Assembly: GCF_036507355.1 (NCBI RefSeq) | Contig: NZ_AP027877.1 | DNA: 64,000 bases | Strand: one strand, 5' to 3' | DNA from: Escherichia coli | Lineage (GTDB): Bacteria; Pseudomonadota; Gammaproteobacteria; Enterobacterales; Enterobacteriaceae | Shown here: in pieces, positions 47,835 through 51,034 of the stretch | Layout of the letters: each line of letters begins with the position of its first letter | Numbering within the stretch: position 1 is the stretch's first letter | Translations under genes and position numbers: made by a program | Notes under the pieces: generated by a model | What the model saw: only the letters and a program-made list of their open reading frames with translations | Databases searched by the model: none | Told to the model about the DNA's origin: nothing

Positions 47835-48473
47835 ATGCCCGGGCGCTTTGAACTAAAACCAACCCTGGAGAAAGTCTGGCACGCGCCGGACAATTTTCGC
47901 TTCATGGACCCGCTGCCGCCGATGCATCGTCGGGGGATCATTATTGCCGCCATTGTATTGGTGGTCGGATTTCTGCTTCCATCTGATGATACGCCCAACG
48001 CGCCGGTGGTGACGCGTGAAGCGCAGTTAGATATTCAGTCGCAATCACAACCGCCGACAGAAGAACAGCTGCGGGCGCAATTAGTCACACCACAAAATGA
48101 TCCTGATCAGGTGGCTCCGGTCGCTCCAGAACCTATACAGGAAGGCCAGCCAGAAGAACAGCCGCAAACTACCCAAACGCAACCATTCCAGCCAGATAGC
48201 GGAATTGATAATCAATGGCGCTCTTACCGTGTCGAACCCGGTAAAACGATGGCGCAGCTGTTCCGCGACCACGGACTGCCCGCTACCGATGTCTATGCAA
48301 TGGCGCAGGTAGAAGGCGCGGGTAAGCCGCTGAGTAATTTGCAAAACGGGCAGATGGTGAAAATCCGCCAGAACGCCAGCGGCGTGGTGACGGGCTTAAC
48401 CATTGATACGGGGAATAATCAACAGGTCCTGTTTACCCGCCAGCCGGATGGCAGTTTTATTCGCGCGCGGTAG
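47835..48473 (+). CDS. ytfB: OapA-domain cell-division-associated protein YtfB
   Basis: 212 aa from internal ATG ([21 protein letters not shown]); membrane anchor plus Pro/Gln-rich linker. Confidence 0.88.
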
Positions 48474-48783
48474 ATGAAGGGTCAACCAGAAGCCAGCTAA
48501 GGATTGTCTCTTTGATGACCTTACGTCTGGCTTCCAGTGCCTGGGGTGAAACCATACTGATGTGATAAACCAGGCCAAGCGTATGCTGGTTGATCAAATA
48601 ATATCCCCCAAGCGCAGCAATATTAATATTCACCTGCAATGGGTCGATATCTGGCTTAAAAATATTGTGTTTCTTCCCTTCATCCAATAAGGATTCCATT
48701 AACTGCAAGTGCGCATGGTTAATTTCTAAGAGACGCTGTGATTTTGCATAATGCACACCTTTACTTTGATTTTCACTATGCAC
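48457..48783 (-). pseudogene. ytfA: ytfA, C-terminal fragment of a putative transcriptional regulator (N-terminally truncated)
   Basis: 108-codon frame that opens without an ATG; I traced the frame upstream to a TAA with no start codon between. Confidence 0.6.
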
Positions 48784-49131
48784 AATTTTTAAAAACCAGG
48801 GATTAGCAATATAATAATCCCATGTAAAATAAATAATTTTCTCAATGGCTTTTTGTGGCTGGTTAACCTGCTGATTAACGAATACACCGATACCGACAGC
48901 GTAGAATAATTACATACCGCACAACAAGAATGTACGGTGTAAGGCGTGGAAGTCATTTTCTCCCCGGGTGCATCGTTATATCCGTGATGAGCGATTTTTG
49001 ATATTAATATCTTTCACCATCCGCTATTTTCACTACTTCAGAAAACAAACTTATTTTTATTAATATCGATTCTTTATTCTGTAAACATTCAGCTGAGATA
49101 TTTATAAAAACATTAAACAGGCAACGATACA

Positions 49132-49926
49132 ATGACATTACCAACCACTATTTATTCATTTCCTGCATATTCACCCCGTTTTTCGTCCACCGACAAACCA
49201 GTAAAATTAAAAATTCATCAATACGCACGCGCTACATTACTTTCAAATCGTGGAAGAGATCATAATTGCGATGGCAGACGTACTGTTGAGATCCACAAAC
49301 TAGATCTCTCAGACTGGCAAGCATTCAATAAGCTAGCGACGAGGTGTAATGCTTACGATGGAATAACAATGAAGGGTGATAATTCTTTTGGATGGAACCA
49401 TGAAGCTACATTAGATAATATTCACGCCCAGAAATACAATAAAGCTTACGCGGGTGCGCGGTTAACCGCAGAACTGAAATATTTATTGCAAGATGTCGAA
49501 TCCTTCGAACCCAACAGTAGATACACAATACACGAGGTTGTTTTGGGACCTGGTTATGGTACTCCAGACTATACCGGCCAAACGATAGGATACGTTGTAA
49601 CCCTTCCTGCCCAAATGCCTAATTGCTGGTCATCTGAACTACCAACAATCGATCTTTATATCGACCAACTTCGCACTGTTACAGGCGTTTCTAATGCCCT
49701 CGGATTCATCATTGCTGCATTGCTAAACGCGTATTCTGATTTACCCCATGATTTGAAAATTGGTCTGCGTTCCTTATCAAGTTCAGCCGCAATCTACTCG
49801 GGTTTGGGTTTTGAGCGAGTGCCGCAGGAGCGAGACATCAGTTGCGCTCATATGTATCTAACGCCAGCAAACCATCCTGACTTATGGACACAAGAGAATG
49901 GTGAATGGATCTACTTGCGAAATTAA
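49132..49926 (+). CDS. yjfZ: Uncharacterized protein YjfZ (AT-rich orphan)
   Basis: 264-aa ORF with AT-rich upstream region; no motif recognised. Confidence 0.75.
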   Translation: MTLPTTIYSFPAYSPRFSSTDKPVKLKIHQYARATLLSNRGRDHNCDGRRTVEIHKLDLSDWQAFNKLATRCNAYDGITMKGDNSFGWNHEATLDNIHAQKYNKAYAGARLTAELKYLLQDVESFEPNSRYTIHEVVLGPGYGTPDYTGQTIGYVVTLPAQMPNCWSSELPTIDLYIDQLRTVTGVSNALGFIIAALLNAYSDLPHDLKIGLRSLSSSAAIYSGLGFERVPQERDISCAHMYLTPANHPDLWTQENGEWIYLRN

Positions 49927-49952
49927 TGCCTGACGAAAAATAGAAAGCAAAA

Positions 49953-49976
49953 CGCCGACCAGTGGTCGGCGTTTTT
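49953..49976. terminator. Bidirectional rho-independent terminator between yjfZ and rplI
   Basis: CGCCGACC-AGT-GGTCGGCG stem with A-run before and TTTTT after. Confidence 0.75.
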
Positions 49977-49996
49977 ACGTCTCGTTGAATAACGAA

Positions 49997-50458
<462 letters not shown>

Positions 50459-50487
50459 TCAAAGTCGTATTAATGGACCGTGACCGA

Positions 50488-51034
<547 letters not shown>

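Follow-up and report, generated by a model that had tools for sequence, protein, structure and literature searches.

Between the conserved genes ytfB and rplI of Escherichia coli, a truncated regulator gene, ytfA, lies divergent from yjfZ, an AT-rich orphan gene. This arrangement raises the question of whether the two genes form a regulatory unit or have come to be neighbours by some other route. We addressed this question in a 64,000-nucleotide stretch of the E. coli contig NZ_AP027877.1 (assembly GCF_036507355.1), referred to here as the window. A sequence-only reading of the window had described ytfA as truncated, lacking an ATG, and divergent from the 264-aa yjfZ across a 348-bp AT-rich gap; inspection of the reading frame, Pfam searches, alignment and PGAP annotation all bear this description out. 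The same reading proposed that ytfA and yjfZ are what remains of a small module of regulator and target, possibly acquired horizontally, in which the regulator has been cut short, and this proposal fares differently. The left flank of the locus is ytfB (47835-48473, plus strand; tblastn 100% over 212 aa), which is annotated in all related records and whose 3' end overlaps the ytfA stop by 17 bp; the right flank is rplI (49997-50446, minus strand).

On the minus strand, the frame ending at 48457 stays open over 150 codons and is bounded upstream by an in-frame TAA at 48910-48912. Its earliest ATG is codon 71, and its first start-type codon is a GTG at 48783, which is not preceded by a Shine-Dalgarno sequence and defines the 108-codon ORF (48457-48783, minus strand) called ytfA in the sequence-only reading and in the old K-12 annotation. 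Homology to TetR proteins runs past this GTG to 48859, for 133 codons plus the stop; the pseudogene remnant, hereafter ytfA', occupies 48457-48859 on the minus strand and comprises codons 83-215 and the stop codon of a 215-aa TetR/AcrR regulator. Its translation corresponds to residues 83-215 in alignments with intact 215-aa orthologues, with 98-100% identity to the E. coli proteins, and codons 1-82 fall within a 544-bp deletion described below. At the DNA level, ytfA' is 99% identical to two intact alleles, L006 (positions 2865-4023) and L004 (BLAST). Pfam assigns the remnant to TetR_C_29 (E = 5.3e-20; 72.2 bits against a cutoff of 26.2; profile positions 27-119 of 119), with no match to TetR_N, the N-terminal helix-turn-helix. 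PGAP labels ytfA' a pseudogene ("incomplete; missing N-terminus"), and a 2025 bioRxiv preprint also handles ytfA as a pseudogene. ytfA' is a C-terminal regulator fragment that retains the ligand-binding domain, has lost the helix-turn-helix and has no start codon. The "gap" between the 108-codon ORF and yjfZ (48784-49131; GC content 0.336 versus 0.512 for the whole window) is itself partly genic: 76 bp of the 348 bp are regulator sequence, and a further 103 bp are the relic of a reductase gene.

The intact form of the regulator is common. Among 5426 complete E. coli genomes, 3132 (~58%) carry the intact regulator/promoter segment. There, ytfA encodes a 215-aa TetR/AcrR regulator that is always divergent from a CoA-dependent catabolic operon of six to eight genes: a short-chain dehydrogenase/reductase (SDR) gene, which comes first and is annotated as "3-ketoacyl-ACP reductase", followed by genes for a xylose-isomerase-like TIM barrel protein, an enoyl-CoA hydratase, a family-I CoA-transferase and a fumarate-reductase-like flavoprotein, and then either an MFS (DgoT-like) transporter (1686 genomes) or a TRAP transporter (1446 genomes). 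We observed intact islands of the TRAP type, and of the MFS type with yjfZ, without yjfZ, or with a hipBA-like module instead. Islands at the same ytfB-rplI site are also present in E. whittamii, E. albertii, Klebsiella spallanzanii and Entomohabitans. The locus between ytfB and rplI is polymorphic, the regulator and its CoA-dependent organic-acid operon being its ancestral or an alternative state; our literature search returned nothing on the function of the island. A CRP site reported in ETEC, TGTGATCACTATCGCA (PMC4287617), has an exact match in L004, inside the region that is deleted from the window. The palindrome ATCAACCA-N6-TGGTTGAT is conserved in the intact loci of E. coli and Entomohabitans and is a candidate operator of intact YtfA. 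Both elements are found only in intact alleles, within the deleted segment, and the palindrome has no match anywhere in the window, even when up to three mismatches are allowed.

These alleles bear directly on the proposed module. The two genes are adjacent and divergent in the window, and both are AT-rich (GC content 0.40-0.43 versus 0.51 for the window); moreover, 288 genomes have an intact ytfA and yjfZ within the same interval. Nonetheless, the other 2844 of the 3132 genomes with an intact ytfA lack yjfZ, and intact ytfA faces the catabolic operon rather than yjfZ. In the 288 genomes that have both, yjfZ is always ~8 kb away, at the far end of the operon after the MFS gene, on the operon strand and beyond a terminator-like hairpin. 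Full-length ytfA homologues are not linked to yjfZ, an outcome that the sequence-only reading had itself named as refuting its proposal. Islands of the outgroups lack yjfZ, the operator-like palindrome is missing from the window, and Escherichia sp. E1V33 has the same truncated allele without yjfZ. We therefore consider a horizontally acquired regulator-target pair to be extremely improbable. Since yjfZ is a separate segment, is missing from a lineage that bears the same truncation, and accompanies an intact ytfA in only 288 of 3132 genomes at a distance of ~8 kb, we conclude that it is not the target of the regulator.

What, then, produced the divergent layout? The truncated allele, found in 2226 of the 5426 complete genomes, carries the junctions of two deletions between short direct repeats. 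The first (48855-48862) contains GTGGCTGG, a decayed copy of a 7-bp direct repeat, GTGGCGG, that is present at both breakpoints in intact alleles (L006 4000-4050 and 4545-4595, compared with the window); these are separated by 544 bp in the intact allele. Immediately beyond it lies the reductase relic (48863-48965, plus strand), 103 bp corresponding to codons ~30-64 of the SDR gene, with two in-frame stops. This relic is 82.5% identical to L006 4568-4670 (BLAST). We considered whether a match of 82% identity could be paralogous or due to chance, and rejected this possibility: the 32-residue translation is in frame and colinear with codons 30-64 of the intact SDR, the relic is identical among scar alleles, and an identity matrix shows that its derived changes are common to the E1V33 relic. 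The second junction (48951-48958) has the microhomology AGTCAT[T/C]T, copies of which are located at SDR codon ~60 and ~80 bp downstream of the MFS gene, and corresponds to a loss of ~7.3 kb.

A 544-bp deletion between the GTGGCGG repeats took out codons 1-82 of the TetR gene, the intergenic region with its CRP site and palindrome, and the first ~29 codons of the SDR gene. A second deletion, of ~7.3 kb at AGTCAT[T/C]T, eliminated what remained of the operon. Together, these events left a dead C-terminal regulator fragment and the 103-bp SDR relic. In our judgement, the pairing of a regulator fragment with yjfZ is very probably the scar of an old deletion, with the divergent layout a by-product of that deletion and not a regulatory design. 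The scar appears to be old: a divergence of 17% separates the relic from intact genes, and the relic has derived changes in common with an Escherichia lineage that is ~9% diverged. Recombination with intact alleles may have kept the ytfA' flank E. coli-like in the meantime.

It is conceivable that ytfA' is still functional, yielding from its GTG a 108-aa protein consisting of the ligand-binding domain only. The window, K-12, GF3-3 and E1V33 all have the frame intact; dN/dS is low (0.04-0.14), even between the two truncated lineages; and CRISPRi of ytfA altered expression of dapE and bssS, according to a preprint. We do not favour low dN/dS as a sign of function, given that IS609 splits ytfA' in about three-quarters of scar alleles, that the gene is frameshifted in strain 103, and that the sequences are nearly identical to intact alleles. 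Indeed, the K-12 ytfA' protein is identical to the C-terminus of the intact L004 protein, which fits recent recombination better than selection on the fragment, and recombination with intact alleles probably accounts for the low dN/dS. The interruption by IS609 occurs in O157 and many other strains, with ~1750 additional split places found; these insertions and the frameshift in strain 103 indicate that ytfA' is dispensable. The remnant also lacks a promoter region, an ATG and a Shine-Dalgarno sequence, and the CRISPRi effects could arise through ytfB, which overlaps ytfA convergently. We infer that ytfA' has no function; a surviving ligand-binding protein is very unlikely.

AT-rich in composition, yjfZ behaves as a discrete indel. 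It lies within a separate presence/absence segment of 844 bp (49095-49938, plus strand), in a cargo slot that immediately precedes the rplI terminator; 2522 of 5426 complete E. coli genomes (~46%) have this segment. The coding sequence (49132-49926, plus strand; 264 codons, ATG start) is preceded by an AT-rich spacer (48966-49094), which in intact alleles with both the MFS gene and yjfZ separates the MFS-gene terminator from yjfZ, and which E1V33 has kept: the E1V33 sequence is colinear with the window from 47701 to 49094 and then resumes directly at 49939. On the other side, a GC-rich hairpin terminator (49949-49975) between the convergent yjfZ and rplI genes forms the right-hand boundary, which is the same in all alleles. 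The junctions of the 844-bp indel have no convincing target-site duplication, repeats or mobile-element signature. yjfZ very probably sits beside the leftover of the regulator by accident.

Any promoter of yjfZ should fall in the 48966-49094 spacer or in the next 37 bp. Scanning 48400-50050 for the sigma-70 consensus gave five sites versus 4.7 expected, such that no yjfZ promoter stands out above chance. Binding of H-NS and of RpoD holoenzyme has been reported for the yjfZ/ytfA spacer of K-12 (PMC3946193). yjfZ is probably an autonomous, monocistronic gene, and probably also H-NS-silenced, the latter on the strength of that K-12 literature table.

An alternative possibility is that yjfZ belongs to the MFS-type island as its final gene, encodes an accessory enzyme of the pathway, and survived an internal deletion. 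In L005 and L006, it lies on the operon strand 270 bp downstream of the MFS gene; the deletion-2 breakpoint is upstream of yjfZ, so that the scar allele could derive directly from the configuration with both the MFS gene and yjfZ; and an acyl-CoA-using enzyme of the GNAT superfamily, the fold predicted for YjfZ below, would suit a CoA-dependent pathway. However, only 288 of the 1686 MFS-type genomes have yjfZ, the MFS-type islands of E. whittamii, Klebsiella and Entomohabitans lack it, and elsewhere the slot on the rplI side is filled by a hipBA-like toxin-antitoxin module or by a gene for an EamA transporter. The yjfZ paralogue, yjiC, is a stand-alone gene, and the GC content of yjfZ is 0.42, versus 0.50-0.55 for the operon enzymes. 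Membership of the island is thus unlikely, and we favour yjfZ as independent cargo.

Nor do we think that yjfZ is a spurious AT-rich ORF. Although it is an orphan with a weak Shine-Dalgarno sequence, and we found no data on its function or expression, its 264 codons are intact in all eight alleles compared, with dS up to 0.10 and dN/dS of 0.27; its paralogue yjiC shares 38% identity and 58 invariant columns; and the predicted fold is coherent. A non-coding yjfZ is accordingly improbable in the extreme. YjfZ matches DUF2686 (PF10887) over its full length, with 507 bits against a gathering cutoff of 25, as do all 13 aligned YjfZ/YjiC family members. Homologues outside Escherichia/Shigella were not found: word-indexed and exhaustive HMMER searches gave only YjfZ/YjiC and fragments, apart from two matches to large proteins that we dismissed as repeat-protein noise. 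A tblastn search of phages gave no match, and "plasmid" matches were to non-mobilizable E. coli records of 0.37-4.9 Mb, probably mislabelled chromosomal sequence. Our literature search for DUF2686 likewise yielded nothing on function.

Structure prediction for YjfZ, which the sequence-only reading had suggested, gave a GNAT-like fold, in AlphaFold2 (AF2) models of low to moderate confidence (pLDDT 47.7 and 59.0) built from a shallow alignment. The predicted order of elements, b1-a1-a2-b2-b3-b4-a3-b5-a4-b6, is the mixed alpha/beta order of GNAT proteins, and an invariant TVxGVxNxxGF is on the b4-a3 loop of YjfZ/YjiC; the motif contains glycine but is not the canonical Q/R-x-x-G-x-G/A. The YjfZ/YjiC profile matched only DUF2686 in Pfam at E <= 10 and no PDB chain below E = 0.16, and a comparison with the E. 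coli GNAT YjgM in hhalign gave a probability of 0.1. The models suggest that YjfZ is probably a divergent, acyl-CoA-dependent acyltransferase-like protein with a GNAT fold. We lean slightly towards a picture in which YjfZ/YjiC would be a young, fast-diverging GNAT branch, restricted to Escherichia and beyond the reach of sequence methods, with yjfZ coding for an enzyme that varies between strains and possibly acts to modify a small molecule or a macromolecule, and housed in a recurrent cargo slot.

The locus is ordinary and has mostly been annotated before; the small novelty is the GNAT assignment, by which the uncharacterised DUF2686 family gains a hypothesis, a GNAT acyltransferase, that can be tested at the level of the fold. 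Our analysis also removes a false lead, in that regulon inference, CRISPRi screens and the interpretation of gSELEX data should not count the ytfA/yjfZ pair as a regulatory module. The presence of yjfZ in less than half of complete E. coli genomes bears on the proposal to use the gene as a universal marker for E. coli. Lastly, K-12 has lost a CRP-linked, TetR-controlled catabolic island that is intact in more than half of these genomes.

The C-terminal domain of ytfA' belongs with those of TetR/AcrR repressors of the TetR_C_29 subgroup that are divergent from their own catabolic operons, and the intact ytfA loci have the classic TetR layout of a divergent operon with a palindrome in the spacer. 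By contrast with the intact YtfA of E. coli B2/ETEC, E. albertii and E. fergusonii, the window copy has no helix-turn-helix, start codon, promoter or operator. YjiC (E. coli b4325), the only DUF2686 paralogue, resembles YjfZ over its full length and in its invariant motifs; both genes are monocistronic, stand-alone and confined to Escherichia/Shigella, but yjiC sits between iraD and uxuR, also in E. albertii, whereas yjfZ is in the rplI-proximal cargo slot. Members of the GNAT superfamily (BH2621, 2qml; an acetyltransferase toxin, 7byy; TacT/AtaT; AAC(6')-Ib; SpeG) have no sequence-profile similarity to YjfZ, which differs from GNATs in its ~50-residue disordered N-terminus, its long a1-a2 insert, and TVxGVxN in place of Q/RxxGxG/A. 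In GNAT-toxin modules such as TacAT, AtaRT and KacAT, the toxin has an upstream antitoxin partner; by contrast, there is no antitoxin ORF before yjfZ, where the indel extends only 37 bp upstream, and yjiC is likewise solitary. The scar itself resembles microhomology deletion scars at other E. coli accessory loci, which likewise have short direct repeats at both breakpoints, a decayed relic with stops and a secondary IS insertion; it differs from them only in its age and in its presence in a divergent Escherichia lineage.

The window has an E. coli-like gene order, cycA-fklB-ytfB-ytfA'-yjfZ-rplI-rpsR-priB-rpsF; among complete E. coli RefSeq genomes, the best identity for positions 48400-50000 is 98.4%, and the yjfZ segment is 97.7% identical to that of the K-12 derivative C600. 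The DNA is thus not from K-12, and might derive from a Shigella or from an E. coli lineage as yet unsampled. ORF and GC measurements bear out the sequence-only reading of a start-less 108-codon ytfA frame divergent from a 264-aa yjfZ across a 348-bp AT-rich gap. The frame of the ytfA' remnant (48457-48859, minus strand), which ends at 48457, has 150 open codons bounded by a TAA at 48910-48912; its first start-type codon, a GTG at 48783 that gives the 108 codons, lacks an upstream Shine-Dalgarno sequence, and its first ATG is codon 71. The yjfZ ORF (49132-49926, plus strand) has 264 codons, and the GC content of the gap is 0.336, versus 0.512 for the whole window. The proposed truncation of the regulator also holds: the sole Pfam match in ytfA' is TetR_C_29 (E=5.3e-20), with no match to the HTH domain that defines TetR regulators, and the frame aligns with 98-100% identity to residues 83-215 of an intact 215-aa protein in other E. 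coli strains. We conclude that ytfA' is a pseudogene, and it is already annotated as such: in related genomes, RefSeq/PGAP labels the corresponding 402 bp a TetR/AcrR pseudogene ('incomplete; missing N-terminus'), and a 2025 preprint likewise handles ytfA as a pseudogene.

The idea that ytfA and yjfZ are a regulator-plus-target module does not survive comparison with intact alleles, in every one of which the regulator is divergent from a catabolic operon rather than from yjfZ. That operon carries genes for an SDR ('3-ketoacyl-ACP reductase'), a xylose-isomerase-like TIM-barrel protein, an enoyl-CoA hydratase, a FadX-like family-I CoA-transferase and a fumarate-reductase-like FAD protein; its last position is taken either by TRAP DctQMP genes or by a gene for a DgoT-like MFS transporter. 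This island also occupies the ytfB-rplI site in E. whittamii, E. albertii, Klebsiella spallanzanii and Entomohabitans teleogrylli. Across 5426 complete E. coli genomes, the intact regulator/promoter segment is present in 3132, a number equal to the sum of those with the MFS gene (1686) and those with the TRAP genes (1446); the yjfZ segment is present in 2522 and the scar allele, with its two deletions between ytfB and rplI, in 2226. The contiguous MFS-spacer-yjfZ junction is found in 288 genomes, such that yjfZ accompanies intact ytfA in only 9% of cases, and there it lies ~8 kb from ytfA, beyond a hairpin 3' of the MFS gene. Hence, full-length ytfA and yjfZ are not linked, and the divergent ytfA'/yjfZ pair is a juxtaposition produced by deletion.

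BLAST comparison of the window with an intact MFS-type allele that carries yjfZ (L006) gave three colinear blocks: 47701-48859 with L006 2865-4023 (99% identity), 48863-48965 with L006 4568-4670, inside the SDR gene (82.5%), and 48963-50600 with L006 12001-13638 (97%). The window is therefore missing two segments, of 544 bp and 7330 bp. In L006, the first is bounded at both ends by the 7-bp direct repeat GTGGCGG and the second by AGTCAT[T/C]T; these are microhomology deletions of a typical kind. The first removed TetR codons 1-82, the SDR 5' end, and the regulator-operon spacer elements (L006 4269-4479), namely a CRP site known from ChIP-seq in ETEC H10407 (PMC4287617) and an adjoining palindrome. 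The ChIP-seq motif, TGTGATCACTATCGCA, is exact in a second intact allele (L004 1463) and has one mismatch in L006. The palindrome, ATCAACCA-N6-TGGTTGAT (L004 1480-1501), is the only inverted repeat in the spacer and has perfect 8-bp arms, with an exact counterpart in Entomohabitans and an approximate one in Klebsiella; we infer that it is a putative operator of the intact regulator. It has no match with up to 3 mismatches anywhere in the 64-kb window. Together with the CRP site, it appears to offer a ready-made operator/promoter for finding the island's inducer.

The intact regulator exists in E. coli as two deeply diverged haplotypes with ~90% DNA identity over the TetR gene and the ytfB 3' end (L005 and L008 versus L004 and L006), differing at the C-terminus (...NPARG versus ...DPSSTAHE). 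Each occurs with both MFS and TRAP ends, indicating mosaic recombination across the island. Separately, E. coli M171-1 (L007 7058-8623) has an IS1 between a 117-bp TetR C-terminal stub and a truncated dctP. This is an independent decay of a TRAP-type island, and the island has thus been lost more than once, through different mechanisms.

Translated, the 103-bp SDR relic left in the window corresponds to SDR codons ~30-64 and contains two in-frame stops. Its copies in scar-type E. coli match one another fully or at 99%, but identity is only 84.5% to the Escherichia sp. E1V33 relic and 82% to SDR genes of intact E. coli alleles. The window and E1V33 relics have derived changes in common, one of the stops among them. 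At 91% identity, E1V33 is colinear with the window from ytfB through ytfA' and the two junctions to the spacer, which argues for a single, old origin of the scar. The ytfA' remnant of E. coli is nearly identical to intact E. coli C-termini (dS 0.04; dN/dS 0.04-0.14), with zero amino-acid differences between K-12 and L004. We read this pattern as the result of recombination with intact alleles, which would have homogenised the flank, rather than of selection on the fragment, a reading supported by disruptions of the remnant: it is frameshifted in strain 103, and is split in O157:H7 and many further lineages by IS609 (tnpA plus a TnpB/InsQ RNA-guided nuclease gene; L003 2297-3944, and L091-L093) at one fixed position, equivalent to window ~48564. 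From ~1750 extra split matches, we estimate that roughly three quarters of scar-type genomes carry the split.

E1V33 jumps from window position 49094 straight to 49939, and so lacks exactly 844 bp, made up of yjfZ, the 37 bp before it and the 12 bp after it. This segment shows no target-site duplication; it either entered a long spacer or disappeared from E1V33. MFS-type alleles that lack yjfZ have other contents in its slot, between the island MFS gene and the rplI terminator: a 101-bp spacer in ET490 and E. whittamii, and a hipBA-like module (HipA-family toxin gene and HTH gene; L088 3921-5683) in the B2 strain NRG 857C. An EamA transporter gene occupies the same slot in K. spallanzanii (L013 1342-2262). 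Given these varied contents, the site directly upstream of the rplI terminator behaves as a variable cargo slot. Found in just 2522 of the 5426 genomes, yjfZ cannot serve as a signature gene for E. coli as a whole. Moreover, the 'YjfZ' qPCR and Sanger primers and probe of PMC11057252 match the paralogue yjiC (L094 5001-5831) with 0-2 mismatches, and the yjfZ genes of K-12 C600 and the window contain no site for them within 2 mismatches.

For the K-12 yjfZ/ytfA spacer, in vitro binding of RpoD holoenzyme and an H-NS-associated flag have been reported (Shimada et al., PMC3946193). A consensus promoter scan for yjfZ gave nothing above chance; the likeliest promoter location is the 169 bp 5' of yjfZ (48963-49131) common to scar and MFS-plus-yjfZ alleles. 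All eight yjfZ alleles compared are intact (mean dS 0.060, mean dN 0.016, ratio 0.27), indicating a real gene under moderate constraint. Matches to yjfZ on 'plasmids' are non-mobilizable E. coli records of 0.37-4.9 Mb, probably mislabelled chromosomal sequence, and no homologues were found in phages.

The finding as a whole is ordinary; its remaining value lies in the allele history, the population frequencies and a GNAT hypothesis for DUF2686, of which YjfZ is a bona fide member. An exhaustive HMMER search of 1.84 billion representative proteins recovered nothing beyond YjfZ fragments and a single paralogue, YjiC (~38% identity). In both E. coli and E. albertii, the yjiC gene stands alone between iraD and uxuR. 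A GNAT toxin module was ruled out, since yjfZ has no antitoxin-like partner gene. Sequence-profile methods gave no link between YjfZ/YjiC and GNATs, making the assignment a fold-level hypothesis only. The AlphaFold2 models are of low to moderate confidence (YjfZ, pLDDT 47.7; YjiC, pLDDT 59.0, pTM 0.60), and scores increased along with model confidence; YjfZ is a probable divergent GNAT. GNATs bind the CoA pyrophosphate at the b4-a3 loop, and it is on the predicted b4-a3 loop that YjfZ and YjiC would place their family-invariant TVxGVxNxxGF motif.
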